Below the pieces are notes generated by a model, which was not told the DNA's origin, did not search any database, and saw only the letters and a program-made list of their open reading frames with translations. From an uncultured Candidatus Saccharibacteria bacterium (GTDB lineage Bacteria > Patescibacteriota > Minisyncoccia > JAHISW01 > Tagabacteraceae), in contig CAZRMW010000001.1 of assembly GCA_964601305.1 (NCBI GenBank), positions 135,450 through 199,449 of the forward strand: DNA of 64,000 nucleotides. Direction: 5' to 3'. The translations under genes were made by a program, and so were the position numbers. Shown piece by piece: positions 3,637 through 48,569 of this stretch; the first letter of the stretch is position 1, and each line of letters begins with the position of its first letter.

Positions 3637-3637
3637 T

Positions 3638-4534: not shown

Positions 4535-4535
4535 A

Positions 4536-5654: not shown

Positions 5655-7015
5655 TAAAGATTCTTTTTATTAGCTAGTGGATCTTTTTTGAAATAATCAC
5701 CATAAAACACCTTGGACGCTTGCCTACTTCCTCCTTTGCATTTAGAAACAAAAAAACATTTTTTGCATTCTTCTGGCAAATAATTTAAACTGCGGATTTT
5801 TTTTAGAAATTTATTTTTCCATACTTTTAGCACACTTGAAGTATCTCCTAAATTTTCATCGATAAAATAATGTGGTTTGTAAAACCCTCTCGGATCGACA
5901 ACAATTCTTGAATGTCCGTCGTCGGCAGTTGCGCCAACAGAAATACTACTCAATTTATTTGTATCTTTAATTGCACAAAAAGGAAGAGAGTTAGCTAAAG
6001 CAATAGGCATATCTAGTGTTTTTCTTATTTTAAAAATTTTTTCTACAAAAACTTTTACTAATTTAGAGTCTAAGATATTTTCTCCCGATATAGGAATTGG
6101 CCTATAAAACTCCCACTCATCAATGGGAAGTTTTTCAATAAAATCAGCCATATTTTCAAGATTTAAAATATTTTCTTTTGTAAGCACTGTGCCAACACGA
6201 ACAGTTTTTATTCCACTTTCTTTCAAAAATTTTATAGAGATTTCTTTCTTTTTTAAAACCCCTTTTCCTCCTGTAATTATATCCTCTTTTTGGGGTAAAT
6301 AATTTTCTATTGGGATTAAAATGTTGTCGACAAGTTTTGCTAAATTGTCTGCCATGGCTTTGTTTACCAAAATTCCATTTGTGTTTAGCCTTACTTCATC
6401 AAATCCCCTATTTTTTGCATACTTAAGAATTTTAAAAATATCTTTTCGTAAAAGAGGCTCCCCTCCAGTAAACCTGACTGTTTTTATTTTTGAACTATAG
6501 ACATCGTCTATAATTTTTTTTGTTTTCTCAAAACCCAACCGGGGAGACTTTTCTCTTCCACAAGAGGCAAAGGAAATTTTATTAAAACAAAAATTACACC
6601 TTAGATTACACTTTGGCTCTATTTCTATCATTACTTCTGTAGGTAAATCCAAAATAGGACTAAAGCCATTCTCCCTATAGTATTTCAAGTATCCCTTCGG
6701 GAATCCTCCACAAGATTTGTCCCACTTACATTTTTTGCAACTTTTCCCTTTATCTCCAGAAAAATTATCAAAAACGATATGGTCAAGAGAATTTGAAGAA
6801 ACCAAGCAATATGGAAAATTCTTTAAAATAATTTTTATCTTGCTTTCATATTTATTTAAAAGATTGTAAATAGATTCGAGAAGTTCTGGAAAAGACGGTA
6901 AATCAAGCAAGTTTTCTGCCAAAATAATTTCTAAGTTTTCTGATCTACTTTCAACAGCAATCTTCGCCAAAGAATCTATTGTTGAATAGTTTTGTTTGTC
7001 TATTTTATATTTCAT
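5654..7015 (-). CDS. Radical SAM protein with an extra N-terminal domain carrying the family CxxCx5CGG motif
   Basis: N-terminal CKKCKWDKSCGGFPKGY, central CNLRCNFC, FTGGEPLL, C-terminal CKKCFFVSKCKGG. Confidence 0.75.
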   Translation of the reverse strand: MKYKIDKQNYSTIDSLAKIAVESRSENLEIILAENLLDLPSFPELLESIYNLLNKYESKIKIILKNFPYCLVSSNSLDHIVFDNFSGDKGKSCKKCKWDKSCGGFPKGYLKYYRENGFSPILDLPTEVMIEIEPKCNLRCNFCFNKISFASCGREKSPRLGFEKTKKIIDDVYSSKIKTVRFTGGEPLLRKDIFKILKYAKNRGFDEVRLNTNGILVNKAMADNLAKLVDNILIPIENYLPQKEDIITGGKGVLKKKEISIKFLKESGIKTVRVGTVLTKENILNLENMADFIEKLPIDEWEFYRPIPISGENILDSKLVKVFVEKIFKIRKTLDMPIALANSLPFCAIKDTNKLSSISVGATADDGHSRIVVDPRGFYKPHYFIDENLGDTSSVLKVWKNKFLKKIRSLNYLPEECKKCFFVSKCKGGSRQASKVFYGDYFKKDPLANKKNL

Positions 7016-7653
7016 TTTCTCAAAACTCTAAAGTTTTCTTCATCAATAATTTCTACAACAGTAGAAGGTCTCTTTTTAGGCAACTCGCCAACATCCAAAA
7101 TTAATATATCTGAGGGAAAATTATTTTCCTCTCCAAATTGATTTAACAGCTCCTCTACGCTATAACACACCTCCCTACCAGATAAATTGGCGCTAGTTCC
7201 CACAAGTGGATTATTCAATTTAGAAAGTAGTTTTAAATAAAAAATATTTCTAGGAATTTGTATACCAATTGTTTTTAATCCAGGATTTAGACTAATAGGT
7301 ACGTTGTCTTTCCTTGGTACAATAAATGTAAATATTTTTTCTTGTTTTTTTTGAAGTATTCTTTCAACCAAAAAACTTGCCTTTCCATAAGTATTAAACT
7401 CTTCTACATTTTTGACTGTTATAAAAAAGGGCTTACTATAATCCCTGTTTTTAAACTGATAAATTTTTTTTATTGCATCTTCATTGTTCATATCGGCACC
7501 TATGCCATAGCAAGAATCTGTAGGATGCACAATAAGACCCCCTCTCTCTATCACCCCAATCGAAGCTTTTATTGCTTCATTTACTTCTTTCTCGTTTTCT
7601 TGATTTATTTTTAAAATTTCCATACTCATATCAAAGTGTAATGTTAGGCTCAA
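7012..7653 (-). CDS. YrdC/Sua5/TsaC-family (threonylcarbamoyl-AMP synthase-like) protein
   Basis: HPTDSCYGIGAD resembles the PTDTxYGLG signature. About 210 aa. Shares a 4-nt overlap with the downstream gene. Confidence 0.65.
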   Translation of the reverse strand: MSLTLHFDMSMEILKINQENEKEVNEAIKASIGVIERGGLIVHPTDSCYGIGADMNNEDAIKKIYQFKNRDYSKPFFITVKNVEEFNTYGKASFLVERILQKKQEKIFTFIVPRKDNVPISLNPGLKTIGIQIPRNIFYLKLLSKLNNPLVGTSANLSGREVCYSVEELLNQFGEENNFPSDILILDVGELPKKRPSTVVEIIDEENFRVLRK

Positions 7654-8668
7654 AATTTTTGAATTTTATTTTGTATTTATTTTGGTAATAGGCCAAGCAT
7701 CCAATCATTGCAGCATTATCTAACCTATATTCTTTTTTTGTTGGCTTTCTTAAAATAATTTCACCCCTTATTTTATTTTTGATTTTTTTGTACAAATCTT
7801 TGTTTTGAGAAAGTCCACCAACTAAATGAACCTCTTTTGCTTTCTTTTTTTTAGCTAGCAAAACTATTTTTTCAGAAAGTATTTCGTTTAATGATTCTTG
7901 AAAACTTGCTGCCACGTCTCTGGCAAAAGATCTGCTAATCCTTCCTGTTTTTCTTTTTTCTACCTCTATAAAAAGTTTAATTTGCTTTAAGAAATTAAAA
8001 AAGTTTAAATCTGTCAAATCTCCTTTGTAATACTTTTTGAAATTATATTTACAGGGATCCCCTTGCTCCATAATCTTTATAGCATTTTTAATTCCATCTA
8101 CATCGTCTCTGGAGGGCTTAACAACCCCTAAACTCTTTCCAACTGCCCTAAAAATTTTTCCAACACCTATAAAAGTTTTTATTCCGGCAATTTTTTTAGT
8201 TTCCACACTTCCACAAAGAGATTCGAAACTCTTTATATTTTTGATCAACGCAAAATCGCTATGGCTTCCAGAAGCAGAAAAAACTAATATTGGAAAATTA
8301 AAATCTTCTGGTTTTCTTTCGATCCACGAGGAATAATTGTGAGCCAAGATATGATCAACTTCCACGACGGGTTTTTTGTAAATCTTTCCCAACAACTTGG
8401 CAAACGATAATCCAACCAAAACGCAGTTATATATACCAGACTTTGAACTGACAGCAATAGCATCTATTTTATCCAAATTTATATTTTTATTATTTATATT
8501 TTTTAGCAAAAACTCTAAATGTTTTTTGGGGAGCAATTGAATAAACTCTCTCCAGCTCTTTGTTGGCAAATACCCTGAACCAGTTTTGTTAAACAAAACT
8601 TCTGTTCCATTTTCTACTATAGAAATTGCGGCACTAAAACCAGTTGTATCAATTGCTAAAATTCTCAT
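7631..8668 (-). CDS. Kae1/TsaD(Gcp)/HypF-type ASKHA-fold protein, divergent
   Basis: MRILAIDTTG start, HILAH (HxxxH metal motif), SASGSHSDF resembles SGGHT. About 345 aa. Immediately follows the YrdC-like gene. Confidence 0.55.
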   Translation of the reverse strand: MRILAIDTTGFSAAISIVENGTEVLFNKTGSGYLPTKSWREFIQLLPKKHLEFLLKNINNKNINLDKIDAIAVSSKSGIYNCVLVGLSFAKLLGKIYKKPVVEVDHILAHNYSSWIERKPEDFNFPILVFSASGSHSDFALIKNIKSFESLCGSVETKKIAGIKTFIGVGKIFRAVGKSLGVVKPSRDDVDGIKNAIKIMEQGDPCKYNFKKYYKGDLTDLNFFNFLKQIKLFIEVEKRKTGRISRSFARDVAASFQESLNEILSEKIVLLAKKKKAKEVHLVGGLSQNKDLYKKIKNKIRGEIILRKPTKKEYRLDNAAMIGCLAYYQNKYKIKFKNFEPNITL

Positions 8669-9822
8669 AACAATTCTTTAACTACTTTATTTCTCTTAAT
8701 TTTTCCTAAATTTAATTTTAAAAAACTTTTTTTCATTTTCTTTGTATTTTTTAAAGCACTTTTTACTTCTTTTTTAAAAATATTTTTTGAATCTTTGTCT
8801 ACAACTCTAGCCACACCAACATTTTTTAAAAATTTTGCTCGTTCATATTGTTCTTTGCTGTCTCTGTCTAGCGGAACTAACACTGATGGCACCCTCGCCT
8901 GCACTATTTCATTACAAACATTATAGCCCGCTGTAGATATTATTAAACTAGACAAAGTAAAAAGTTCGGGTAAGTTTTTTTCAAAAGATATTAATTTTAT
9001 TTTTAGTTTTCTTCTTTTAACTTCTTTTTTAAGTTTATCTAAATATTTAAAAGAAGGCCCCACACAAATAATCATTCTTGCTTTTGTTTCTTCTTTTTTT
9101 ATTTCTTCAAAAATTTCCACAGTTCGCTTCGCTACCCAAAAAGGAGACTTGCAATTAGCATTAACTATTTCTCCTCCACCCCCCAAAGAGACGGTAATTA
9201 AAAAATCATTATTTTTTATTTTATATTTTACTCTGCATTCACTTATATTTTTTTTAGAAATACTTTTTACTATACTCCCTGAAATAAAAAATTTTTTGTC
9301 TTTTTTAATATTTTTAAATTCTTTTTTAGATAAAATTCTAGCGACCTCTTCTTCACTATGTGGAATAATAATTTTATCAAACTCACTTAAAATTTCACTT
9401 CTTTTTTTTAAAACTAATTGATACTTTTCTTTGTCAGCTAATCTAAAGATTAACACCTTTTTTATATCACCAAACTCCGAGTCTAATATTTCAAAAGGGA
9501 AAGAAAACCCAAACAAAAAAACATCAACCACTATAGTATCTGGCTTGTGTTTGTAGATAGTTTTAATAAATTTTTCTCTATTTTTTTCCTTGGTTTTTAA
9601 AATACTTTTTCTTCCTTTTTTAATTAGACCATCTGAGGCAGGAGTAAGCCGTACAAAGGAAATATTGTTTTCTTTCAAAAAATGTGGTGATTTGCTTAAA
9701 GTGGCAAACAAAATATCTGTTTTTGGTTTTTCTTTTTTAACCAAATTAGCCAAAAGAATTGATCTTCTTAAGTGCCCTAAGCCAACACTATTTGAAGCAT
9801 AAAATAAAATTTTTTTATCCAT
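8665..9822 (-). CDS. GT-B fold glycosyltransferase-family protein (MurG/PseG/SpsG-like)
   Basis: N-terminal FYASNSVGLGHLRRSILLANLV matches the PseG/MurG G-x-G-H..R motif. C-terminal STAGYNVCNEIVQARVPSVLVP resembles the MurG C-terminal domain. Confidence 0.5.
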   Translation of the reverse strand: MDKKILFYASNSVGLGHLRRSILLANLVKKEKPKTDILFATLSKSPHFLKENNISFVRLTPASDGLIKKGRKSILKTKEKNREKFIKTIYKHKPDTIVVDVFLFGFSFPFEILDSEFGDIKKVLIFRLADKEKYQLVLKKRSEILSEFDKIIIPHSEEEVARILSKKEFKNIKKDKKFFISGSIVKSISKKNISECRVKYKIKNNDFLITVSLGGGGEIVNANCKSPFWVAKRTVEIFEEIKKEETKARMIICVGPSFKYLDKLKKEVKRRKLKIKLISFEKNLPELFTLSSLIISTAGYNVCNEIVQARVPSVLVPLDRDSKEQYERAKFLKNVGVARVVDKDSKNIFKKEVKSALKNTKKMKKSFLKLNLGKIKRNKVVKELL

Positions 9823-10726
9823 TTTTGTTTTTTAAAAACTTGGCAATACAAGGCCCCTCTATCAAACAATCTTTTTCTTCTGTTTTGTAAAGCAAGCTAT
9901 TAAAATATTTTTCAATCTCTCTGCAATTTTTAAAATCACCAAGTTTTTTTCTGTGCCAACTAGCCAGTGGGAGGCATCTAAAAACAGATAAATCTGTGCC
10001 TATATCAAACTTTCCGGAATTACCCTCGCAACCATATTTAATCCCTTTCTTATTGAAAACATCTTTAGATAGACCACAGCCCAAACCGACTCCTATGTTT
10101 TCTCTTTTAATTTTTTGGATTTCATTTATAAGTTTTTCTGAGTTTACAGAAAAATTCGGATTAGCCAGTCTTAAAACAATATTTTTTATACCAAATCTTT
10201 TGGCAATTTTTATTAAATAGTCTGATTCAAACTTATCGTCAAAAACGACCGCACCCACCAGAGTGTTTTTAAAAACAGAAATTTTTTCTAAATTTTTTAA
10301 AACCTGGTTCCATATTTTGGAAGAATATTTTTCTTTTGGATTTATATTAAAACTATATCTTATTCGAGAATCCTTACTTAACAAAAAATCTAAAATATTT
10401 TTATCAAAAATTCCGTTTGTAAAAATTTGCACAGAAAACCCTCTTTTTAAAGACGCTTCTACAATTTCTTTGAATTTAGGGTGCAAAGTTGGCTCTCCAC
10501 CCATTAGACGCACCTTTTTTTCTCTGCTCCCCCCCAAAAAATCCAAAACTTTTTCAAAATCAGAAAAAGACATTTCTTTGTTTTTTTTCTCCATTTCGCT
10601 TTTAGCAAAACAATAAGAACATTTTTGATTACATCTATTTGTCAGTAAAATATTAGCCATAGAATATAAGTTTATTCTATATAAAATAAACCAAATGAAA
10701 AAGGCATGCTGTACAAGACAACACAC
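9815..10726 (-). CDS. Radical SAM protein (start probably at MANILLTNRCN, position 10660)
   Basis: CNQKCSYC, LMGGEPTL, Cys-containing C-terminus. Confidence 0.75.
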   Translation of the reverse strand: MCCLVQHAFFIWFILYRINLYSMANILLTNRCNQKCSYCFAKSEMEKKNKEMSFSDFEKVLDFLGGSREKKVRLMGGEPTLHPKFKEIVEASLKRGFSVQIFTNGIFDKNILDFLLSKDSRIRYSFNINPKEKYSSKIWNQVLKNLEKISVFKNTLVGAVVFDDKFESDYLIKIAKRFGIKNIVLRLANPNFSVNSEKLINEIQKIKRENIGVGLGCGLSKDVFNKKGIKYGCEGNSGKFDIGTDLSVFRCLPLASWHRKKLGDFKNCREIEKYFNSLLYKTEEKDCLIEGPCIAKFLKNKNG

Positions 10727-10749
10727 CTTTAGCTTGAAAGACCCTTACC

Positions 10750-10965
10750 TTACCAACTGGTAATTTCGGTCTCATCGACACCGAAAAACATATCGGTGTC
10801 GATGGCTGACGGCAAGTTTGTCGAAAACCATTTCATGATTTCGGCATCATTTATGTTTATGCCGAAATACATGTCAGAATCGACGGCCGACATAGGCTCG
10901 GCAGCGATGGCCAGAGAAGCAACAAAACAAACAATAAGTGCGGCGATAAGCAGTGAACGGATCAT
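10750..10965 (-). CDS. Small secreted/signal-peptide protein with two internal repeats (DSDMYFGI.../DTDMFFGV...)
   Basis: 71 aa with a hydrophobic N-terminus (LLIAALIVCFVASLAIAA). Strong SD AAGGAG 7 nt before the ATG. TTGACA-N17-TAAACT promoter on the minus strand at about 11024-11052. GC about 46% against about 30% in the flanks. Confidence 0.5.
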   Translation of the reverse strand: MIRSLLIAALIVCFVASLAIAAEPMSAVDSDMYFGININDAEIMKWFSTNLPSAIDTDMFFGVDETEITSW

Positions 10966-11066
10966 GATGTCTCTCCTTTTTTTATCTGTTTTTTAAAATA
11001 TCACATCCCATAATCTATTCTGAAGTTTATCATAGCCTATTCTATCTGTCAAGACCCTGATACAAT

Positions 11067-12233
11067 TTAAAAACGATTTAGTTTTTCTATTCTTATTCCT
11101 TCTTTTTTCTTCAACACCCTTCTTCTATGTTGACGCCCAGTACATTCACCTGCAATTTTTCCAATTGCCACATCTTTTTTAAGACAATTCTGCTCTTGAC
11201 GCATATTTACCATACTTTGATCAAACCACAATTCTTTAAGTGATGTTTTTTTTACGTTTCCAGTCGGCAAATCTTCCCTCATCCAACAAGGAACAACATT
11301 CCCTTTTTCGTTAATAAACAATGACATTTTCTCCATTAAGCAAATGTCCCCATCCAAAAACGGAGCACCGATCCAACTCCAACCCTCTTTTTGAATCTTT
11401 TCCATTTTTTGATTAAATCCAAAAATTTGCTTTTCTGTAAGTTGTAATTTTTTAAAATTATCAATAGCCCTACCAGACCACTGTATCCTTTCTACACAAG
11501 GTTGTATATTATGACCAACACACCATTTGATGATATTAGGCACCTCTTTGTAATTCAAACTACAAAGTAAATTATTGTTTATTAATCTGGTTCTGCCCCA
11601 CTGATTGCTTTTATTAAAACCTGCCGACATCAAATTAAAAACACCTTTATACATTTTAGTTGCTGCGCCAGACACACCAACTAAATAGTCTTGTGTTTTA
11701 GAATCAAAAGAATTGATCTTAAATATAATCGAACAATCTAAGTCATATAGCCTATGGGCAATCTTAGGTGTAACTAAAATTGCATTTGTCAGCAATAAAC
11801 TACGAACACCTTGGCTTCTTGTGTATTCCATTAACTTCCAAATAAAAGGATATAACAATGGTTCGCCTCGTCCAGCAAAAATTACTTGTTTAACCCCCAA
11901 ATCAGCTGCCTGCTGAATTATGTTTTTATATTCTTCTTCCGATAATATTTGACTTTTGTTTTCTTTGCCACAGCTACCCAAACAATAAATACATTTCAAA
12001 TTACATTTTTTACCAAGAAACAACTGTAGTTTGTCGGGACGATAATCAGATTCAAAATCGACTAAACTATTTTTACAATACAATTTCCTAAAAACACCTC
12101 TTTGGTTTTTTGGTAAATTCCTGTTTGTGGAAGGCAAAATATCAAAAGCTGATTTTGTTGTTTTAATCATAAAATAAATTAATTTATAAAATCTATAAAA
12201 TACTCGTAAGAATACTCTTGCTTTCTTGGACAA
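11067..12233 (-). CDS. Radical SAM protein (start likely MIKTTK, position 12170)
   Basis: CNLKCIYCLGSC, FAGRGEPLL, Cys in the C-terminal part. Confidence 0.75.
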   Translation of the reverse strand: MSKKARVFLRVFYRFYKLIYFMIKTTKSAFDILPSTNRNLPKNQRGVFRKLYCKNSLVDFESDYRPDKLQLFLGKKCNLKCIYCLGSCGKENKSQILSEEEYKNIIQQAADLGVKQVIFAGRGEPLLYPFIWKLMEYTRSQGVRSLLLTNAILVTPKIAHRLYDLDCSIIFKINSFDSKTQDYLVGVSGAATKMYKGVFNLMSAGFNKSNQWGRTRLINNNLLCSLNYKEVPNIIKWCVGHNIQPCVERIQWSGRAIDNFKKLQLTEKQIFGFNQKMEKIQKEGWSWIGAPFLDGDICLMEKMSLFINEKGNVVPCWMREDLPTGNVKKTSLKELWFDQSMVNMRQEQNCLKKDVAIGKIAGECTGRQHRRRVLKKKEGIRIEKLNRF

Positions 12234-13147
12234 AATCTTTTTTTAGTATCTTCTATAGATATTGAAAAACTATTCCCCCAATTAAGGTGTTCGTACCCTT
12301 TATTGGCAAGCATTTCTAGAAAAAAGAGATTCAAAACACCACTAGCACCCGGTATTTTTCTGTCTACACACAAAACACTTCCAGATAAATTCTTTGATTT
12401 TGCAAGTTTGAAGGCAATATTTATCCCTATTGGACGCTGGTTGCAACACAAAACAAAACTTTCATACAATCTTGGGTTTTTTAGTGTTTCTTTTACTATT
12501 CTTAGATTCTTATTATAAACATGCTTGTAAGTAACAAGATTGGTCTCCTCTTTCTCCGCCCCCCTCTCTTTGTGTTTTTTCCAATCATCTAAAAGTCTTT
12601 TTACGCCACAATAATTACTATCTAACAATGGCTGGTAGGAAATTTGTTGTTTAGTTTTCTGTTTAGCTACAAAATTAAAAAAACTATTCCAACTTTTTCG
12701 TCTTAAATCAGGCTTGTCAGACAAAAAATCTTCTAAGTTTTTATAATCAGGCAGGTAAGAAATAAGCCTCTTTCGTTTTACAAATTTTATGGATTTGAAC
12801 TTTTCGTTGTGCAAATATTTATCTAAAACCTGTTCTGGCAACTCCCAAAGCCAAGCTTTTCTAAAATTTTTACCTAATTTATCTTTTCGTTTGATTAAAA
12901 AAGAAAATAATTTCTCTTGCCAATCTTTACCCTTGGGACAACAGAAAAAATACATTCCTGAATTAAACTTACCAAAAAAGAAAATATCTTTCCCGTCGTT
13001 GTAACTCAGGGCTAGTTTATTGCCATCAATATAATTATCAACAAAAGCTTCGCTGTCACTAAAAAAAGAAGAATTGGGGCTACATAAACGATTAAAGAGT
13101 TCTACGTCACCCTTATTAATTGAATGTATTTCAGATAAATTAACCAT
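12179..13147 (-). CDS. Hypothetical protein (322 aa), no confident family assignment
   Basis: Long ORF co-directional within the operon. No recognisable motif. Confidence 0.45.
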   Translation of the reverse strand: MVNLSEIHSINKGDVELFNRLCSPNSSFFSDSEAFVDNYIDGNKLALSYNDGKDIFFFGKFNSGMYFFCCPKGKDWQEKLFSFLIKRKDKLGKNFRKAWLWELPEQVLDKYLHNEKFKSIKFVKRKRLISYLPDYKNLEDFLSDKPDLRRKSWNSFFNFVAKQKTKQQISYQPLLDSNYCGVKRLLDDWKKHKERGAEKEETNLVTYKHVYNKNLRIVKETLKNPRLYESFVLCCNQRPIGINIAFKLAKSKNLSGSVLCVDRKIPGASGVLNLFFLEMLANKGYEHLNWGNSFSISIEDTKKRFCPRKQEYSYEYFIDFIN

Positions 13148-13157
13148 TATTAAATAT

Positions 13158-14531
13158 TTAATTAAAATCTTTTTCTAGTTTAGGGTGATTTGGAAGATTT
13201 TCTAGCTTCTTAAGAGCAATTAAAATCTCCGACAAACTAGTCTGACAAAATAAATGCACCCAATCATTAATCATCTCCTGTCTATCAAAACTATCTTTAT
13301 ATTTATATTTCTTCTCCATTTTTTTAACCAATAATTGAAAAGACAAAGAATTAGGCAAAGGCTCAAAAATATGAGACAAGACCACATTCATACCTAACGC
13401 ATTAAGTTTATACACAAAATCTACTGTCCGATCTATTGAATCTTTGCTTTCTCCTGGACCACCAAACACAAAATTCCCTATTACACTAATTCCGGCTTTC
13501 TTCAAATCTTTTACAGCCTTAAACCCAATACTAGTTACTGTGCCTTTTTTCATAGAAGAAAGTATTTTTGGATCACCGCTTTCTAGCCCCAAAACAACCT
13601 GATGAATGTTGAGATCTTTAATTTTTTTAATATTCTCAGAATTTATATCATCAGCTCTAGCATAAACTCTCATTCGTGGTTTAAAACTATATCCTTTGTA
13701 CAAACTGTGAAATTCTTTAAACCAACCTTTCTGATCAAAAAAATCATCACTAATATCCCAAATAAGATCCGCGTTAAATTTTTTTACCAAAGAATCTATC
13801 TCTTCCAAAACTAAATGGGGACTACGAGCTCTTAGGCTCTTATACATTCTAGAACAAAAAATACAGCCACCTTTTGAATTTGTGCGCCAACCACAACCCT
13901 TTTTTGAATATATATGAAAAACATTTTTGTAAAAGCGATCAGGCCATTTTTGATCGAAAATTTTATAATATTTTTTATAATCAATTATTTCCCGACCAAA
14001 ATTGGGCAAGCTGTTTAAATCAACGTGTTCAATTATATTTTTTTTAATAGAGCCGTCTTTTCTGTCTTGGAAAACAAGATTCTTTATTTTGCTTAAAGGT
14101 TTGCCTATTGCATATTCATAAAAACTCCTTTCCCCATCTTCTTGAATAACCGCATCAACACAATAATTATCAGAACAAATTCCTCGATTTAGCATAATTT
14201 CTTCAGCAAGACCTGTTGCATGATGGCCACCCATAACAACTTTACTGCCCAACATCTTCGATTTTAAAGCCAAAGACAAAGCATTGCCATAATTAACAAG
14301 CATTGGTCCAATTCCCACCAAGTCCGGTTTATTTTCTTCTAAAAAAGAAATAGTTTCAGAAAGATCCAAAATTTGGCCATCTAAAATATGTATTTCTGCT
14401 TTTAAATTTTTTCTTTCTAAATAATTAGCCAGACTAATAGCCCAAAGTGGTGGATAAATACACCCCTCAATAAAAACGTTATCATTATATCCATCGTCGT
14501 CTTTTGGGGGATCTATCAACACAATAATCAT
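13158..14531 (-). CDS. B12-binding domain / radical SAM (class B rSAM, methyltransferase-like)
   Basis: N-terminal Rossmann-like cobalamin-binding region (LVGIGPM...VVMGGHHATG), then CGWRTNSKGGCIFC and LGLESGD. Typical class-B architecture. Confidence 0.7.
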   Translation of the reverse strand: MIIVLIDPPKDDDGYNDNVFIEGCIYPPLWAISLANYLERKNLKAEIHILDGQILDLSETISFLEENKPDLVGIGPMLVNYGNALSLALKSKMLGSKVVMGGHHATGLAEEIMLNRGICSDNYCVDAVIQEDGERSFYEYAIGKPLSKIKNLVFQDRKDGSIKKNIIEHVDLNSLPNFGREIIDYKKYYKIFDQKWPDRFYKNVFHIYSKKGCGWRTNSKGGCIFCSRMYKSLRARSPHLVLEEIDSLVKKFNADLIWDISDDFFDQKGWFKEFHSLYKGYSFKPRMRVYARADDINSENIKKIKDLNIHQVVLGLESGDPKILSSMKKGTVTSIGFKAVKDLKKAGISVIGNFVFGGPGESKDSIDRTVDFVYKLNALGMNVVLSHIFEPLPNSLSFQLLVKKMEKKYKYKDSFDRQEMINDWVHLFCQTSLSEILIALKKLENLPNHPKLEKDFN

Positions 14532-15241
14532 AGATGACTTTTTTTAAGAATATATATTGGATAAAGTTCAAAATCGCTGTAATCAGCAGCCATTTTTAAA
14601 TCACGAACAATAAAATATTTTGATAAAAGCTCATCAATTTCTTCTACTGTTCTTTGTGTAAGAATTTGAGAATCATTCTTTTTGTTAATAATATTTTTAT
14701 CAAACAAACACACGCGGGTAACAAAAAATCCAGTCTCTTTCAGCAAAAGAGAAATTCTTTTTAAAAATTCCGCTTGTTCATTTGGCTCAAAATTACACAA
14801 AACAAAATCACCAATAATTAAATCAAAATGACTTTCTTTTAAAAAACCAGTCAAATCCATCCAATTAGCCTTTGTCCATTTTTCATTATTTTTAACCTCC
14901 TCTTTACATACCACAACATCAATATTAAGCTTAAACAAAACATCTCTTATTTCTGGGGTAGAACCTAAGAGCAAAACTTTTTCTTTTATGCTTATTTGAT
15001 TAAAAATCAGCAAGTAATTTTTGATATCTTCTGGAGAAAGCCTAAAAGGAGAAGAATATTCGGCCCACCTTGATAAAGCGCCACCCTGATCTAGTTCGTC
15101 AAATAAGCTATTGTTATTCGACAATTCTAATGATTTCTGTAGTTTTTTATTGTTGTTTATACCTCTTATTGTCATTAATTTTTCAGCTGATATTTTAAAT
15201 TTCTTTTGTGTTATTCTCTCATAAAAAGTATGGGCACTCAA
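14528..15241 (-). CDS. Rossmann-fold SAM-dependent methyltransferase-like protein (paralog A)
   Basis: VLLLGSTPEIRDV...VVVCKEE and FDLIIGDFVLCNFEPNEQAEFLKRISLLLKETGFFV (motif II/III-like). Paralogous to 15284..16135. Confidence 0.4.
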   Translation of the reverse strand: MSAHTFYERITQKKFKISAEKLMTIRGINNNKKLQKSLELSNNNSLFDELDQGGALSRWAEYSSPFRLSPEDIKNYLLIFNQISIKEKVLLLGSTPEIRDVLFKLNIDVVVCKEEVKNNEKWTKANWMDLTGFLKESHFDLIIGDFVLCNFEPNEQAEFLKRISLLLKETGFFVTRVCLFDKNIINKKNDSQILTQRTVEEIDELLSKYFIVRDLKMAADYSDFELYPIYILKKSHL

Positions 15242-15283
15242 GCATTTGTACCAAAAGAAGTATATATTAATTTAATACGACGC

Positions 15284-16135
15284 TCACTCCAAGCATCGTT
15301 TTTTCATTTTGTATACTGGATAAAATTCCGAATCTATATAGTCACCAGAGTTTATATTTTTATTTATATAAAAACTATCCAAAAACATTTTTTCTAATTC
15401 TTCTTTAGTATTCTGAACCCATGTTCTCTTCCCTCTCCATTTTTTTAAAATATTTTCTAAAACAACTTTTTCTCTTTTGCTTGTTGTTTTGTTATTTAAA
15501 TAGTTATAAATATCATTGGTAAATTTTTCTTTATTAATTTTTTTATTTTTCAGATTTGTGTTTTTATCAAACAAACGAGATGTTATAAGATCCTCGATCA
15601 ATTTACTTTTCAAAACAGAATATTTTTTAAAAGCGTTTTTTATTATATTTTCTGACTTAAAATTAATCATTTTTTTGTTAAAACAATGTATTCTCGTAAT
15701 AAAAATTCCTTCTTTGTTTAATAGTCTTGAGATTTTGTTTAAAAACTTGCTTTGGTATTTGGTCTCAATATTTCGCAAAACCAAATCTCCCAAAATAAAA
15801 TCAAAATAATTATCCTCAAAAAATTTATCTAAATTTAACCAATCAATTTTTATCCATTCTTCTTTGTTTTTGTTAATTTTGTATCCTAATTTAGTCATTT
15901 CTTCCATCATTTCTATAGAAAAATCTGCCACAGTAATTTTAGAACTATTTTTTGAAAAAATTTCTCTAATTTCTGGGGTAGCTCCCAACAATAATATTTT
16001 TTTATTACTATCTATACCAGAAAAATAATTTTTTATGTCCTTTTTAGAAGGTCTGAAAGGGAAAGTATATTTATTCCATAACAAAGAAGCATTTTCCCAA
16101 TTTGATTTTTTAAAATTACTCTTTTTTGTTTTCAT
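15284..16135 (-). CDS. Rossmann-fold SAM-dependent methyltransferase-like protein (paralog B)
   Basis: ILLLGATPEIREIF, FDFILGDLVLRNIETKYQSKFLNKISRLLNKEGIFI. Clearly homologous to 14528..15241. Confidence 0.4.
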   Translation of the reverse strand: MKTKKSNFKKSNWENASLLWNKYTFPFRPSKKDIKNYFSGIDSNKKILLLGATPEIREIFSKNSSKITVADFSIEMMEEMTKLGYKINKNKEEWIKIDWLNLDKFFEDNYFDFILGDLVLRNIETKYQSKFLNKISRLLNKEGIFITRIHCFNKKMINFKSENIIKNAFKKYSVLKSKLIEDLITSRLFDKNTNLKNKKINKEKFTNDIYNYLNNKTTSKREKVVLENILKKWRGKRTWVQNTKEELEKMFLDSFYINKNINSGDYIDSEFYPVYKMKKRCLE

Positions 16136-16197
16136 TAAAAAATAATACCAAAGGATTGGTATTTATAAAACACAAACAACTAGCTGTAATCTCAAAA
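16136..16197 (-). terminator. Intra-operon hairpin plus U-tract (partial terminator/attenuator) between the membrane-protein gene and the methyltransferase-like genes
   Basis: On the minus strand, AAUACCAAUCCUUUGGUAUU (8-bp stem) is followed by AUUUUUUA immediately before the next start codon. Confidence 0.4.
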
Positions 16198-17109
16198 CTA
16201 CTCAATCTCACACAACAAACCTAAAAAAACACTTAAATGTTCCGTCTCGCAATAATCTCCCTTGATGTATTCTTCGTATTCTTTTATCCTTAAAATTTCG
16301 TCATTGCATACTATTTCTGAAGTTCCCATATTTTTACAAACTAGACGAGAAAAATCTTCACCTAAAGATCTATAGGCATAAGCAATTCTAATACCAGTCT
16401 GCACCTCTCTTATTTTTTTATTTTCTACCAAAGGCCCTATGCCCTCTATCGCTTTGAGTGCTTCACCTTCTTCTAGCCCGGAAAAACTCTTTGCAACGTC
16501 ACAAATATTATCACATTTCTTCGGAAATCCACTAGGAGTAGTGTCCAAAGAATTTAATCCATCCTCACATCTTTTTGTTAAAAGACTACAAGTATCTTCG
16601 TTTAAATCTTCTACTGTGGCTAAAACAAGTATAAGTTTATTAAAACCTTCTCTTTCTTCTAATTTTTCCAGATATGTTTTTTTTGATTCATCAGCAGTAT
16701 CTTCTTGATAATTTATATTTTCAATAAAATTTTTAGCTCTATTATAAAAATCTTCATCATTAGGATTTGCAAGAGATTTACATATTAAATATCTTCTAAG
16801 TTTACCGACAGCCAAAGACATTCTGTCTAATTCAAATGTAGTATTTCTAAAAACAATGTTGTTAACCTTAAAATCCAAGCTTTTGTCTGATTCTTTTAGA
16901 TTTGCTAATTTTTCTATCAACTCATCGTCTGATAAATTTTTAGATTCTTCTAAACATTTTGCTTTTACCGCTTCTGATGAAATATGGTGTTGGTCTCTAC
17001 TAAAAAACCAAAAAGCCACAGCTAATAAAATCAAAACAACTGCTGTAAATATTATTGAAAATTTTTTATTTTGTAGCATTTGAAAAATTAATAAGCCGGA
17101 CTCATACAC
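16198..17109 (-). CDS. Membrane-anchored Cys-rich hypothetical protein
   Basis: N-terminal TM segment (FSIIFTAVVLILLAVAFWFF) and many Cys residues. Probable start at M11, which removes the overlap with the precursor gene. Confidence 0.5.
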   Translation of the reverse strand: MYESGLLIFQMLQNKKFSIIFTAVVLILLAVAFWFFSRDQHHISSEAVKAKCLEESKNLSDDELIEKLANLKESDKSLDFKVNNIVFRNTTFELDRMSLAVGKLRRYLICKSLANPNDEDFYNRAKNFIENINYQEDTADESKKTYLEKLEEREGFNKLILVLATVEDLNEDTCSLLTKRCEDGLNSLDTTPSGFPKKCDNICDVAKSFSGLEEGEALKAIEGIGPLVENKKIREVQTGIRIAYAYRSLGEDFSRLVCKNMGTSEIVCNDEILRIKEYEEYIKGDYCETEHLSVFLGLLCEIE

Positions 17110-17570
17110 CCGCCACCACTACAACACGCAAAACAAACACAAGCATTTGAATGGTTTGCATGAGAACTATGTGAACCATGGCTACCGTGTGATCCATGAC
17201 TACCGTGACGGCCGTGACTACCGTGAGACCCATGCGATCCATGCGAACCATGAGATCCGTGACTACCATGCGATCCGTGACTACCATGCGATCCGTGACT
17301 GCCGTGAGAACCATGTGAGCCATGAGAACCGTGAGACCCATGCGAGCCATGCGAACCGTGAGACCCGTGGCTACCGTGTGATGCATGAGAACAATCAGCC
17401 GAACTTGTATTTGGCTTCATCGCCCCCGAAAGCACAACACCCAAAGACAGCACCCCCATAGCAATTTTGGCAGCACTTTTTTTATTTATTCTACCCTCTT
17501 CACTATTTAAAAAAGCTTTTATATCTTTTTTAATTTGAGGAAATTTTTCTTCCGATTTCTTTTTGGCCAT
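17088..17570 (-). CDS. His-Xaa-Ser repeat (HxsA-like) precursor-type protein: leader/TM-like N-terminus, 27 S-H-G-type triplets, Cys-rich tail CVCFACCSGGGC
   Basis: Translation MAKKKSEEKF...SSADC-SHA-(SHG)19-RHG-(SHG)3-SHS-SHA-NHS-NACVCFACCSGGGCMSPAY. A rSAM/SPASM gene sits directly upstream. Confidence 0.8.
   Translation of the reverse strand: MAKKKSEEKFPQIKKDIKAFLNSEEGRINKKSAAKIAMGVLSLGVVLSGAMKPNTSSADCSHASHGSHGSHGSHGSHGSHGSHGSHGSHGSHGSHGSHGSHGSHGSHGSHGSHGSHGSHGRHGSHGSHGSHGSHSSHANHSNACVCFACCSGGGCMSPAY
17148..17390 (-). repeat. 9-bp-periodic coding tandem repeat encoding Ser-His-Gly triplets
   Basis: catgNccgtgNNtaccgtg-type periodicity with varied codons (synonymous heterogeneity), so not a recent slippage array. 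Confidence 0.85.
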
Positions 17571-17591
17571 TAACTAAATTATAACAATTAT

Positions 17592-19022
17592 TTAATTTTT
17601 ATTAAACCAGTCTTCTAAAATTTTTCTAGACTCTTTATTTTTAAGTTTTTCAAACAAAAACTCTAGTGTTGCCATATTTATCTTACACCTTTCATTTGAA
17701 GACATTTGCCCAAAAATATTTCCCTGAACAAAATAATTGTATATAGGGCAAACCCCGCAATACGGCTTGTAGGCACAATCGCAACACCCGGGCAGACCAT
17801 CTAAGCACGACGCCATACACATAGTTCTAGATACAGGACTAGCTACTATTTCTTGGTAACTATCCTTGGAAACATTGCCAAGTCTAAAACTTTCATCGCC
17901 CATCATACTCATCATTCTGCCTTCATCGCACGTGTAAACATCGCCATTATAATTGTAAGCTAGCTGCCCTATACCTGCTCCGCACGGAGACCTAAAATCT
18001 AAATGGTTTGGGTCTTTGTGAGTTAAAATTTTTGCCAAAAAAGTAATAGCCATTTTTTCCCTGAAATCTACCCCTTTTTTGTTTAATTCTAAAATATAAT
18101 CAAAAGCGGCTTTGTAGAAATCCATATATTCATCGGTAGTATAGCCAATTTTTTCAAAATGATTTTTAGAAAAACCAAATGGATTAAGCGGTCTTAAATA
18201 AACATCGGAAAATCCAAGCTTAATAAATTCGTCTATCATTTTTTTATAATATGGCAAAGAGAATTTGCTTACGGTTACAGAAGGACTTAGTTTGTAAATA
18301 TAGCCTTTTTTCTTTAGCTGTGGATACATCTTATTAAACTTTTTCGCCCATTTAATCGCATGTTTGTAGCTGTTTTTATTTTTGCCACTTATTATTGGCC
18401 TGTTTTTATTGTGGACACCCTCTGGGCCGTCTAAAGAAATACAAAAACTCACTTTGTTGTCTATTAGATATTTAAACTTGTTTTCTGTCATCAAAGAAAA
18501 ATTAGAAACTAACCTTAGTTGCAAATCTTTATTAGCTTTTTTATTTTTTTCTTGCGCATACTCAATAATAAATTTTACTATAGACCAATTCACCAGTGGT
18601 TCTCCCCCCTGAAATTCTATTGCCACAAAATCACTTGTTGTTTCAAAAATTTTATCAACCACGCTTTTTGCAGTTTTTTTATCCATATCTAAATCCCCTC
18701 TATCTAAATCTTGGGCGCTTGCATGACAATATACACACTTATGATTGCATCTTAAAGTAACCACAACTATGTGCAAACTGGGTCCACCAAAAACAAAATC
18801 ATTTTTAGATTTATATTTTTCTATTACATAGCTTAAGTCTGCTTCATTTTTTAAGAAATTTTTGTCCTCTAGTTTTTTGTATAGTTTACTCCTCTTTTTT
18901 ACTTTTCCATCTTTAAAATCTTGAAAATCTTCTTTACCTAAAAACAAAAAATCACCAACATCGTTGGTTAAAAAATATTCATCTCCCACTAATTTAAAAC
19001 GAAAATGACTAGGTTTGCTCAT
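17592..19022 (-). CDS. Radical SAM/SPASM maturase (HxsB/HxsC-like, anSME-like)
   Basis: CNHKCVYCHA, FQGGEPLV, C-terminal SPASM cysteines (CGAGIGQ...C...CMASC...CCDCAYKPYCGVCP). Confidence 0.8.
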   Translation of the reverse strand: MSKPSHFRFKLVGDEYFLTNDVGDFLFLGKEDFQDFKDGKVKKRSKLYKKLEDKNFLKNEADLSYVIEKYKSKNDFVFGGPSLHIVVVTLRCNHKCVYCHASAQDLDRGDLDMDKKTAKSVVDKIFETTSDFVAIEFQGGEPLVNWSIVKFIIEYAQEKNKKANKDLQLRLVSNFSLMTENKFKYLIDNKVSFCISLDGPEGVHNKNRPIISGKNKNSYKHAIKWAKKFNKMYPQLKKKGYIYKLSPSVTVSKFSLPYYKKMIDEFIKLGFSDVYLRPLNPFGFSKNHFEKIGYTTDEYMDFYKAAFDYILELNKKGVDFREKMAITFLAKILTHKDPNHLDFRSPCGAGIGQLAYNYNGDVYTCDEGRMMSMMGDESFRLGNVSKDSYQEIVASPVSRTMCMASCLDGLPGCCDCAYKPYCGVCPIYNYFVQGNIFGQMSSNERCKINMATLEFLFEKLKNKESRKILEDWFNKN

Positions 19023-30932: not shown

Positions 30933-31493
30933 ATGCTATTTAAATCTCCGAAAAAAGAACGAGTGGCGATATATATTGATGGTAATAATTTTTATAATCG
31001 CTTAAAAGAACCTGAAATTAATTTTCCAAAAGGTGTTAATTTTAATTATTCAGAATTTATAAATTTTTTGTTGGGAGACAGAGAATTAATTTCAAAAAGA
31101 TATTATATTGGTATAGTAAAAAATTTTGATGGAAAAGAAAAAAGCAAGAAAATGGTTTCAAGTCAGCAAAAATTTCTATCTGAATTAGAAAATCAGGGGT
31201 TTAGTATTAAAAGAGGTAAAATTATTTATGACAACGGGAAGCCAAGAGAAAAAGGCGTTGATGTTAAAATAGCCATAGATTTGATTACGGGAGCAATTGA
31301 TGATTTATATGATACAGCTATTTTAATAAGTTCTGATACAGATTTAATACCAGCGATCAAATATATTAAATTTAAAGACAAAAAACTTGAATATGTTGGA
31401 TTTTCTCACAACCCATCCTTTGGGATGATAAAATGGTCAACCACAAGAAGACTTCTTCTACCTGAAGATATAAACAGATTTAAGCAATTTTGA
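30933..31493 (+). CDS. NYN-domain (LabA-like) protein
   Basis: VAIYIDGNNFYNRL...GVDVKIAIDLI...AILISSDTDLIPAI. Confidence 0.7.
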   Translation: MLFKSPKKERVAIYIDGNNFYNRLKEPEINFPKGVNFNYSEFINFLLGDRELISKRYYIGIVKNFDGKEKSKKMVSSQQKFLSELENQGFSIKRGKIIYDNGKPREKGVDVKIAIDLITGAIDDLYDTAILISSDTDLIPAIKYIKFKDKKLEYVGFSHNPSFGMIKWSTTRRLLLPEDINRFKQF

Positions 31494-33580: not shown

Positions 33581-34284
33581 AGGCACTTGTTAAAGACATC
33601 GAAAACACTCCTCGAAAACTAGAAGGTCTAAAAGATGTATTAAAAACTCCAAAAATCGCCGACCAAAATCCTCAAAAAATTGTATATGACGTCTATAGAG
33701 AAGTAGATCTGGTAAACACTTTGAGATACGATATCACTATTATGCACCCAGAAATGCTAGGTAGTGAATTTTGCAAAACATACGGACACTCTCATGAATA
33801 CTTAGAGGTAATGGAGGTGCTAGAAGGAAAAGCTCTGTGGTTACTTCAGAAACACGACCAGAATAACCCAGAAATCATAAAAGAAGTCTATTTGGTTTCT
33901 GCAAACAAAGGAGAAAAAGCTATTATTCCCAGCGACTTTGGATCAATAAGCATAAACCCAACAAAAGAAAAGGCCGTGCTTTCAAACTGGATGTGTACAG
34001 AGTCTATAAGTAGCTACGAATTAAACAAAAAATTTCAGGGTATGTGCTATTACATTTTAAAAAACAAAAACGGAGAAATAATTTATGAAAAAAATCCAAA
34101 TTACAAAGAAGTTCCTAGTTTAATTGAGTTAAAGCCAAAAGAACTACCAGAATACGGAATCACTTTCGACAAACCCCTACTCTCTTTAAAAGAAACTCCT
34201 GAAAAATTGGAATTTCTTAAAGACCCCGAAAAATATAAAAACATTCTTACAATCGATAAATGTTATGAAGAAACAAGAAAATAA
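33538..34284 (+). CDS. Hypothetical protein, possible cupin-fold (GHSHEY motif)
   Basis: KTYGHSHEYLEVMEVLEG is cupin-like. Weak. Confidence 0.3.
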   Translation: MAHKNQKSMENISIEALVKDIENTPRKLEGLKDVLKTPKIADQNPQKIVYDVYREVDLVNTLRYDITIMHPEMLGSEFCKTYGHSHEYLEVMEVLEGKALWLLQKHDQNNPEIIKEVYLVSANKGEKAIIPSDFGSISINPTKEKAVLSNWMCTESISSYELNKKFQGMCYYILKNKNGEIIYEKNPNYKEVPSLIELKPKELPEYGITFDKPLLSLKETPEKLEFLKDPEKYKNILTIDKCYEETRK

Positions 34285-34780
34285 TTACGCTTTTATAGAC
34301 AGCCAAAATGTTAATCTCGGTGTCCAAAGTCTTGGATGGAAATTGGATTTCAAAAAATTCCGAGCTTACTTAAAAGATAAATACAATATAAACAAAGCCT
34401 TTTTGTTTATTGGATATCTTCCAGGCAACGAACGACTGTACACCTTTTTACAAAAAGCTGGTTTTATCTGTGTTTTAAAACCAACCCTTGAACTACCTAA
34501 CGGTCGAGTAAAAGGAAATGTTGATGCTGAATTAGTTTTACACACAATGATTGAAATTAATAATTTTGACAAAGCAATAATTGTATCTGGAGACGGAGAT
34601 TTTTATTGTTTAGTTAAACACTTATTAAAAATTAGAAAATTTAAAAAAATGCTTATACCTAACCAAAAACGGTATTCCGGACTTCTTAAACAACTAAGTA
34701 CTCCAGATTATAATATTCTCGATTTTATGGATACATTACAGAAAAAACTTTTTTTCGAAAAAAGAAAAGAGCTCTCGTAG
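34265..34780 (+). CDS. NYN-domain (LabA-like) protein, second copy
   Basis: YAFIDSQNV...GNVDAELV...AIIVSGDGDF. Confidence 0.65.
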   Translation: MKKQENNYAFIDSQNVNLGVQSLGWKLDFKKFRAYLKDKYNINKAFLFIGYLPGNERLYTFLQKAGFICVLKPTLELPNGRVKGNVDAELVLHTMIEINNFDKAIIVSGDGDFYCLVKHLLKIRKFKKMLIPNQKRYSGLLKQLSTPDYNILDFMDTLQKKLFFEKRKELS

Positions 34781-41706: not shown

Positions 41707-42387
41707 CTACTCTATTATAAATTCTCTAATTTCTTCGAAGGTGTTTTTTGCTTTGTTTTTATTTTTTTGGCAACTTTTTAAAAACTCATCGTACTCACTA
41801 AAGTTTTTACAATTTGTCCATTTATATTCTTCTAAAAACTTTTTTGCTTTTCTCCAATCTTTTAATCCACCATCTTTCCACCCTGGTTCAAATAAATCTA
41901 AGGGATTCATGTAAATATATTGTTTCAAATAATTTAAATATTCATCTCTATTAACCAAAATAGCCTTAAATCTTCCTTGGAAAAGAGACCCGCTTCTTTC
42001 ATATTTCTGATTAAAATAATTAGTATAACCAGTGCCAAGCTTTTGCATAAAACTAACAACCCCATTTTCTTCTACTTGTTCAAGTATCAAATGAAAATGA
42101 TTCGACATCAAACAAGAACAATGAATCTTAATTACTGGTTCCCTATCTTCTTTTTCTATTCTGTGGGAAGTTGAACTTCCCACAGATACAATACCGTTGC
42201 TCTTATTTATACGTCGAAATAAATTAATCGAAGAATTTTTGTCGTTAAAATCTCTCAACCCATAAAGAAACCTGTGGTAGTCTTCGTTATTCATAAAGAC
42301 TTTTCTCTTGTCTACTCCACGATTAAAAATATGATAAAAATGATTGTCTACAAATTGTGGTCTTTTCATTGTTTGTAGTATACACAT
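41707..42387 (-). CDS. REP-associated tyrosine transposase (RAYT; IS200/IS605-like Y1 HUH transposase)
   Basis: HFYHIFNRG...LMSNHFHLIL (HuH)...GTGYTNYFNQKYERSGSLFQGRFKAILV...YIYMNPL. Flanked by REP palindromes. A 27-bp REP lies in-frame at 42160-42186. Likely start at MKRPQF (42369). Confidence 0.75.
   Translation of the reverse strand: MCILQTMKRPQFVDNHFYHIFNRGVDKRKVFMNNEDYHRFLYGLRDFNDKNSSINLFRRINKSNGIVSVGSSTSHRIEKEDREPVIKIHCSCLMSNHFHLILEQVEENGVVSFMQKLGTGYTNYFNQKYERSGSLFQGRFKAILVNRDEYLNYLKQYIYMNPLDLFEPGWKDGGLKDWRKAKKFLEEYKWTNCKNFSEYDEFLKSCQKNKNKAKNTFEEIREFIIE
42160..42186. repeat. REP palindrome TCTGTGGGAAGTTGAACTTCCCACAGA (inside the RAYT CDS, in-frame)
   Basis: Exact reverse complement of the 42395..42421 copy. 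Confidence 0.75.
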
Positions 42388-47317: not shown

Positions 47318-47713
47318 ATGAAAAAAATGTCTTTATTTTGTGTAGTTTTGTTTGTGCTTTCTACTCTTATTTCTTTTATATCTGTATCTTTTGTAAATAG
47401 TGCCAGTAGTCCAACAACGGACTACAAAAAAATACTAGAAACACTTAAAAAAGAAAAACCAAGTATTGAATATTTTATTACAAGCACCGGAGATAAAATA
47501 GAAGACCCTTCCCATGCAAAAGGAAAAGATTATATAAAATTAGTAAGACAAAAAAGAGGGAATATAAGACTTGTACAATATATCATCTTTGAAAAAAACA
47601 ACACATATAAAATAGTCTATTTATATATAAACAATAAATTATTAATAGACAGAGAAGACAAGGAAGGAAATCAAGGAGCAGATGGAAAATTCGAAGCAGA
47701 GTTTCCATATTAA
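47318..47713 (+). CDS. Secreted hypothetical protein
   Basis: Signal peptide. 131 aa. Confidence 0.4.
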   Translation: MKKMSLFCVVLFVLSTLISFISVSFVNSASSPTTDYKKILETLKKEKPSIEYFITSTGDKIEDPSHAKGKDYIKLVRQKRGNIRLVQYIIFEKNNTYKIVYLYINNKLLIDREDKEGNQGADGKFEAEFPY

Positions 47714-47721
47714 TATAAAAA

Positions 47722-47773
47722 TCCCCCCGCCAACATCTGTGAAGTTGTGGCAGGGGGAATTTCGTTTTTTATT
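47722..47773. terminator. Bidirectional terminator between convergent genes
   Basis: UCCCCCCGCCAACA...UUGUGGCAGGGGGAA hairpin with a T-run on the plus side and an A-run on the other. Confidence 0.7.
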
Positions 47774-48368
47774 TCAAAAGTGGGTTTATGATTTTTTTCA
47801 TTTGTTCCAGCGTCTTTACTGGTGCATTATGCTCAGAAAATCTAACAATACCCTGATCATCAAAAACAATGAGAAAAGGGTAATTTCCCACCTTATGTTT
47901 TTTAAGCAAGGGAATAAGGCTCGAATATTCCGGATGCGACTGAATTAAAAGCCAATTCTCAAAATCAAACGGGCCAAACCTGTTTATCATAGAAGCTTGT
48001 GCTGGGCGATAAAATGAAACAGCAGGAATTCCAATAATCTTGATTTTGTTTTTATATTCTTTGGACAATTCGTTAAAAACTTTCACCTGCAAACTGCAGT
48101 CTTTTGCTCCTGGTCACCAAAATCCTAAAACAGTTACCTTCCCTTTTGTTTCTTCATAAAAATTCATAGAAAAGGTTTGTCTCGTGTGAAAATTAATGTG
48201 AACCAAAGTAAAGTCGACTGCCTTTTGGCCAACCATTGAATCGCCAACGGCAATATCGTCTTGATTTTGTTCATCAGCGACGACCTTGGTATCCAGAGCC
48301 AAAACAGCTCCACAAAACACCAAAGAAACCACGACTGCCAAAGTTAAAAAGATTGATATCTGTTTCAT
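47769..48368 (-). CDS. TlpA/ResA-like thioredoxin-fold protein interrupted by an in-frame TGA at the active-site position (candidate selenoprotein, recoding, or pseudogene)
   Basis: Signal peptide ...GKVTVLGFW-TGA-PGAKDCSLQVKVF.... The frame is continuous across 48114-48116. The combined length of ~199 aa fits the TlpA family. Confidence 0.55.
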
Positions 48369-48569
48369 GGTTCTATCCCCCTAGTTTTGTTGGTTTTTAC
48401 TTAATGATTGTTGTCAAAGATTTTTATCTCTACCCTATTTTTAGTCTAGTTTATTAAAAAAAAATTAAAAGTACCTAATATAACAATACAGACATACCAA
48501 AATGTCTATATAAAACAAAAATCCTGGTGATATAAAACCACGAGGATTTTCTTTACTTAAAATTTATCA

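Follow-up and report, generated by a model that had tools for sequence, protein, structure and literature searches.

Thiol-disulfide oxidoreductases of the TlpA/ResA/DsbE(CcmG) group (cd02966; Pfam families Thioredoxin_8, AhpC-TSA and Redoxin) are characterized by an N-terminal signal or anchor and by a thioredoxin fold marked by the landmarks FW...C...cis-Pro. In nearly all selenoproteins, Sec aligns with a Cys of the homologues (the Sec/Cys pair), normally at the redox-active residue. Selenoproteins of the TlpA and redoxin families are described in a 2026 review under the names UxxC 'thiol-disulfide isomerase-like', 'UGC-containing TlpA family' and 'Redoxin family UxxC' (PMC13188914).

The gene considered here lies in a stretch of 64,000 nucleotides, referred to as the window, and shares with the TlpA/ResA/DsbE(CcmG) proteins the signal or anchor, the fold and the landmarks. 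Its frame is interrupted by a TGA codon close to the active-site motif. A recent nonsense mutation at codon 85 has probably inactivated what was an exported TlpA/ResA-like gene. This is an ordinary event and does not represent a new kind of feature.

An exported thioredoxin-like gene with one internal TGA

The elements of the locus are as follows.

47769..48368, minus strand: the whole interrupted gene (translation, Pfam, AF2 model, Foldseek)
48376..48381, minus strand: Shine-Dalgarno-like GGGGGA, 7 nt 5' of the ATG, read from the sequence
48294..48368, minus strand: N-terminal hydrophobic signal or anchor, residues 1-25, MKQISIFLTLAVVVSLVFCGAVLAL (sequence; helix 4-23 in the model)
48114..48116, minus strand: in-frame TGA, codon 85, context TGG TGA CCA (sequence, 10 assemblies, homologue alignment)
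48096..48107, minus strand: degenerate CxxC, codons 88-91, GCA AAA GAC TGC = A-K-D-C (alignments)
48087..48099, minus strand: small hairpin CUGCA-GUU-UGCAG, 14 nt 3' of the TGA (folding compared with background)
47769..48113, minus strand: frame 3' of the TGA, codons 86-199 plus TAA, open and thioredoxin-like, including the cis-Pro P164
47717..47763, both strands: strong bidirectional intrinsic terminator, about -26 kcal/mol on either strand, with U-runs after it

The frame extends on the minus strand from the ATG at 48368 to the TAA at 47769, a total of 200 codons including the TAA, and contains exactly one in-frame TGA. An earlier note on this DNA had already observed that the frame runs on through 48114-48116, and this holds: the TGA is codon 85 on the minus strand. 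The product, 199 codons long, is a predicted secreted or membrane-anchored TlpA/ResA-like protein of thioredoxin fold. With the stops spelled out, the translation reads MKQ...GKVTVLGFW-stop-PGAKDCSLQVKV...PLLK-stop, and the surroundings of the internal stop read ...GKVTVLGFW-stop-PGAKDCSLQVKVFNEL.... Given the base composition, the chance that the 114 codons 3' of the TGA stay open is approximately 2e-4. Downstream, the terminator separates the gene from a convergent gene for a 131-aa protein (47318-47713).

When any residue is substituted at codon 85, the protein matches Pfam Thioredoxin_8 over residues 76-175 (E = 3e-7; 31.1 bits against a gathering cutoff of 27) and AhpC-TSA over residues 46-177 (E = 5e-7; 30.2 bits against a gathering cutoff of 26). 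As both domains extend to either side of codon 85, thioredoxin-fold homology crosses the stop. An AlphaFold (AF2) model built from a 20-sequence alignment (mean pLDDT 78, pTM 0.70) places helices at 4-23 (N-terminal) and 89-108, the latter preceded by a strand at 78-84 and a loop at 85-88. Its top Foldseek matches are extracytoplasmic TlpA/ResA/DsbE-like thiol-disulfide oxidoreductases, with TM scores of 0.78-0.83 normalised to the target, and the best structures include 4nmu, 3gl3 (DsbE-like), Bacillus subtilis ResA (1su9, 2h1a) and StoA. The cis-proline P164 is invariant in the homologue alignment (A2). The predicted fold and the predicted export signal are thus those of a TlpA/ResA-type protein; a redox-active CxxC is missing, its place being taken by A-K-D-C, and the open reading frame is broken by the TGA at codon 85.

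The neighbouring genes encode FtsK, an S41 peptidase, RecA, S6/SSB/S18, a split transketolase and PfkB, as well as ribulose-phosphate epimerase, a cupin-type glucose-6-phosphate isomerase, RNase J and GroEL. This gene content, together with a GC content of 29-39%, appears to resemble that of a small-genome bacterium of the CPR/Patescibacteria type. Elsewhere in the window, positions 912-19022 (minus strand; also in contigs L014 and L015) accommodate at least 10 radical-SAM genes in an unusually long run that extends past the window start; SPASM domains occur in several of them and a B12-binding domain in one, and they are interspersed with genes for a methyltransferase, a GT28 glycosyltransferase, TsaD and Sua5. 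An ORF at 41707-42387 (minus) gives a partial match to an IS200-like Y1 transposase, covering profile positions 40-118 of 121. Two NYN-domain genes, at 30933-31493 and 34265-34780 (plus), flank the genes for a solute-binding protein and the cupin-type glucose-6-phosphate isomerase.

The TGA codon, its alignment column and its population

Ten assemblies, independent of one another and drawn from at least nine samples in the Logan, ENA and JGI records, have the TGA at codon 85, and both haplotypes of the population keep it. Because it recurs across ten independent assemblies, a sequencing error, one of the alternatives raised in the earlier note, is excluded. Within the window, an in-frame TGA is missing from all 56 stop-to-stop ORFs of at least 150 codons (approximately 18,000 codons in total), and the stops of the 56 likely genes are TAA in 35 cases, TAG in 13 and TGA in eight. 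Reading TGA as a sense codon fuses no other pair of genes in the window. As long ORFs are free of in-frame TGA and eight genes end in this codon, there is no genome-wide recoding, in agreement with what the earlier note had considered likely. The internal TGA is followed by C, and the eight genuine stops by A (three), T (three) or G (two), a sample too small to interpret. Two public protein records of 199 aa, P0001 and P0074, display tryptophan (W) at codon 85; their own DNA reads TGA, from which they do not translate under the standard code. The tryptophan arose because genes on short contigs were called with a code-4 model, and the records are spurious full-length database proteins.

The place of the TGA in the active-site region emerges from an alignment of 91 homologous domains from 65 distant relatives, retrieved by exhaustive HMMER search. 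The TGA aligns with a variable residue that immediately follows FW and precedes the first Cys of CxxC by three residues. The residues in this column are F (26 domains), G (16), Y (14), A (13), S (7), R (5), H, I, W and T (2 each), and K and Q (1 each), with Cys in 0 of 91; an example of tryptophan is FWWDGCTPC in P0010. The register is unchanged when solved thioredoxins are used, FW-A-P-W-C-G-P-C against FW-stop-P-G-A-K-D-C. The earlier note had placed the TGA exactly at the active-site position, which is off by three residues and concerns a column that is never Cys; its remark that one Cys is retained is correct. Position 88 is Cys in 84 of the 91 domains and Ala88 in the interrupted gene; at position 91, where 88 of the 91 domains have Cys, the gene retains it (C91). 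The nucleophilic first Cys of CxxC appears to have been lost before the stop arose. This loss would be old, because the GCA codon is unreachable from TGY in one step. A peroxiredoxin register, in which C91 would be the peroxidatic Cys, was considered as well and is rejected, the PxxxTxxC motif being absent (P-G-A-K-D-C).

No orthologue exists outside the population. A word-indexed search of 5.8 billion proteins returned only the same gene (at least 98% identity), an exhaustive HMMER search of 1.84 billion representatives returned only distant TlpA-like proteins of no more than 34% identity, and the sole yield of DNA scans of genome and metagenome contig collections was an unrelated Pacearchaeota TrxA with the word KEYKNKIK in common. 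The comparison of orthologues proposed in the earlier note thus found none to compare; the distant homologues do align, and their codon-85 column is never Cys. The closest of these is P0004, a protein of 180 aa with 29-33% identity and a Cys-free FWINESYSN, which comes from the same samples. Its gene is located at L019:2520-3062 (also in L020-L022), on contigs of 34% GC with a tetranucleotide correlation of 0.974 to the window, and in a different context, close to genes for an SbmA/BacA-like transporter, a PRTase and a PNP. P0004 could belong to a sister organism, or else its gene could be an intact paralogue within the same genome.

The population comprises two haplotypes. Over 1401 bp, haplotype B (contigs L008 and L013) is distinguished from the window by four transitions, at 47885, 47831, 47807 and 47786. 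All of these lie 3' of the TGA, in codons 162, 180, 188 and 195 (N>D, H>Y, E>K and N>D, respectively); all four are nonsynonymous and all four fall at codon position 1. Intact neighbouring genes in the same assemblies harbour 14 synonymous and five nonsynonymous SNPs. The comparison of 0 synonymous and 4 nonsynonymous changes with 14 and 5 gives p = 0.014 by Fisher's exact test, on only four SNPs that are all at position 1, and p = 0.006 when one doubtful edge SNP is dropped and two adjacent SNPs in the same codon are counted once. The probability that four changes out of four are nonsynonymous is 0.19 if the segment is neutral and 0.0007-0.02 if omega is 0.1-0.3. This pattern argues, on a small sample of four SNPs, that the segment after the TGA is not under purifying selection. 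Under uniform neutrality, the placement of all four changes at codon position 1 has a chance of 1/81; alternatively, this bias could stem from positive selection, were the protein translated, or from recombination over a short tract.

Two further observations concern the same region. An antisense ORF of 88 aa at 47682-47948 (plus) has the four haplotype-B SNPs at its third positions, where three are synonymous and one is M>I. This ORF is unlikely to be a real gene, as it runs into the end of the upstream gene and spans the -26 kcal/mol bidirectional terminator; because it crosses this terminator, the phase of the SNPs is probably a coincidence of the codon-complement frame. Separately, the assembly of SAMN10231901 (L010:2887-3467) follows the window from 50368 to 47483 and continues with unrelated sequence within the 131-aa gene at 47318-47713, either through a strain-level rearrangement or in a chimeric contig.

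Probable inactivation of the gene and the competing explanations

Recent pseudogene formation was one of three options listed in the earlier note, beside a selenoprotein and local recoding, and it is the one that fits the evidence best: relative to its homologues, the DNA contains a real premature stop. The simplest path would be a single G-to-A transition converting TGG (Trp) to TGA in a low-GC genome (33-36% GC). TGG is the presumed ancestral codon, Trp being tolerated at this aromatic-rich position, as seen in P0010. Termination would then occur after 84 residues and yield a signal peptide with the first strands of the fold. Because such a product would end before the active-site helix and the remainder of the fold, no working protein would be expected from it. 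The nonsense allele would have spread to fixation in the natural population, and the part downstream of the stop would be starting to drift. The allele is likely to be young, as decay has not yet touched the remaining frame, the ribosome-binding site or the terminator. The loss of the first Cys (A-K-D-C) seems, from the codons, to have preceded the nonsense mutation, and the lack of Cys in the motif of the closest homologue, P0004, suggests that the family is degenerating locally. As a counterpoint, the gene is flawless apart from the TGA in its frame, ribosome-binding site, terminator, cis-Pro and confident fold model, and a functional recoded gene would look identical.

The main rival to a nonsense mutation is a leaky stop. 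According to this explanation, a near-cognate tRNA-Trp reads through the UGA-C at low frequency and restores FWWPGAKDC, so that the allele is a hypomorph or a tolerated low-expression form. In E. coli, no stop context is leakier than UGA with a C after it, as Poole, Brown and Tate reportedly found in 1995. As the TGA in TGG TGA C precedes C, some full-length protein may be made. Homologues accept Trp in the codon-85 column, no damage is visible in the frame, ribosome-binding site, terminator or fold, and the allele has reached fixation in the samples. Of the eight genuine TGA stops in the window, not one precedes C; eight stops, however, are too few to show that the context is avoided. Against readthrough speak the four changes downstream of the stop, which carry no sign of purifying selection when set against the neighbouring genes, and a leaky stop is on balance unlikely.

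A selenoprotein is considerably harder to accommodate. On this account UGA-85 encodes a selenocysteine that pairs with Cys91 in an unusual manner (U-x5-C), and the hairpin at 48099-48087 is a minimal bacterial SECIS. Several points are consistent with it: the UGA is in frame within a conserved coding frame with homology on both sides, it is fixed in the population, and it occurs in a thioredoxin-fold redox family with known selenoproteins, including UxxC forms and the UGC-containing forms of the TlpA family (PMC13188914). The Sec/Cys pair is nevertheless missing, because the UGA is at neither Cys of CxxC and none of the 91 homologous domains has a Cys in the column; even the first-Cys column holds Ala in this gene. 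Conservation of the UGA in orthologues combined with purifying selection downstream is likewise missing, as there is no orthologue and all of the few downstream changes (n = 4) are nonsynonymous.

The hairpin itself has some appeal, beginning 14 nt downstream and presenting a G as its first loop base. The CUGCA/UGCAG hairpin reported in the earlier note some 14 nt downstream is therefore present, but as a SECIS candidate it is indistinct from background. An 86-nt fold, which starts 9 nt 5' of the TGA and spans the hairpin, has a z of -0.24 against shuffles. The 45 nt after the TGA fold with an MFE of -7.9 kcal/mol. Against a background of 3,000 in-frame positions taken from the long ORFs of the window, this value ranks at the 16th percentile, and among TGG codons at the 13th. 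A simple bSECIS rule, which calls for a stem no shorter than 5 bp and a 3-14 nt loop that has a G among its first two bases and starts 16-37 nt downstream, is satisfied by 50% of background in-frame sites. The Rfam SECIS models gave zero matches on the TGA-proximal stretch even at E <= 10, and none of the NCBIfam selenoprotein-specific models matches the interrupted gene.

The decoding machinery is equally elusive in the DNA covered. ARAGORN found no tRNA-Sec in the window and the flanking loci, only tRNA-Ser, tRNA-Met and tRNA-Asp, and an Rfam scan of the window gave three ordinary tRNAs only. Pfam scans of 40 window proteins revealed no SelA, SelB or SelD, and no Sec machinery lies within the 64-kb window and its flanks of approximately 20 kb; it is presumably absent from the rest of the genome too. 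The gene content looks like that of a small-genome CPR-type bacterium, and no relevant report of selenocysteine in Patescibacteria/CPR was found in the literature. The selenoprotein option of the earlier note finds no support in the column that is never Cys, the ordinary hairpin, the lack of a SECIS family match, the lack of a tRNA-Sec in the window and flanking loci or the nonsynonymous changes downstream, and must be regarded as very unlikely. The same low expectation applies more broadly to any decoding of the UGA, whether as selenocysteine or by programmed Trp readthrough, that would yield a secreted TlpA-like product with a reactive residue three positions upstream of the usual nucleophile and Cys91 as its partner (U-x5-C).

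Still less probable is a split gene, in which the N-terminal ORF of 84 aa and a downstream ORF of 105-107 aa, starting with GTG or TTG at or near 48092, would act as two functional polypeptides. Both pieces have been called in public annotations (P0072, 84 aa; P0073, 105 aa). The break, however, falls inside the modelled fold, between the strand at 78-84 and the helix at 89-108, the downstream piece has no export signal, no homologue is divided at that point and the four SNPs give no indication of purifying selection downstream. Frameshifting at the TGA is rejected, as the +1 and -1 frames both meet stops within 15 codons. The two gene calls with W at codon 85 notwithstanding, the idea that the TGA is a sequencing or assembly error, or stands for Trp or Gly as in codes 4 and 25, has virtually nothing left to commend it and is already refuted by the assemblies and by the ORF and stop-usage results.

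As it stands, the interrupted gene matters little: it is a further accessory gene, probably inactivated not long ago, of an uncultured bacterium with a small genome of low GC. The locus does convey some cautions. An in-frame TGA in a thioredoxin-fold gene is insufficient for calling a selenoprotein, and such calls need the exact alignment column and a SECIS test calibrated against background; code-4 gene calls on short contigs have already produced misleading 'full-length' Trp proteins. If selenocysteine insertion or programmed readthrough were true after all, selenium use or recoding would be extended to a lineage in which neither is known, and U-x5-C would be a new active-site geometry in the first selenoprotein for such an organism.

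Comparison with oxidoreductases, selenoproteins and pseudogenes

Set beside the TlpA/ResA/DsbE(CcmG) oxidoreductases, whose architecture it otherwise follows, the interrupted gene differs in its A-K-D-C motif, in an identity of at most 34% to any homologue, in the TGA and in the lack of an orthologue outside one population. The altered motif has counterparts among TlpA-like proteins with a single Cys or none, namely P0004 (FWINESYSN), a domain of P0002 (FWYADKLEC), P0043 (FWFIDGPSC) and P0064 (FLYLDLKPC), in which the first Cys is lost and the fold retained. Unlike the TGA-bearing gene, the genes for these four proteins are uninterrupted.

With the known TlpA and redoxin selenoproteins the locus has in common the fold family and an in-frame UGA near the redox motif (PMC13188914). 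In the known proteins Sec replaces a redox Cys (UxxC/UGC), whereas here the UGA lies three residues before the first-Cys position and six before the only Cys, Cys counterparts are missing from its column and there is no convincing SECIS.

With an ordinary nonsense pseudogene the gene shares a single premature stop relative to homologues, otherwise intact signals and, on four SNPs, no visible purifying selection downstream. Only its fixation across many samples and its UGA-C context, which leave room for residual readthrough, set it apart from that picture.
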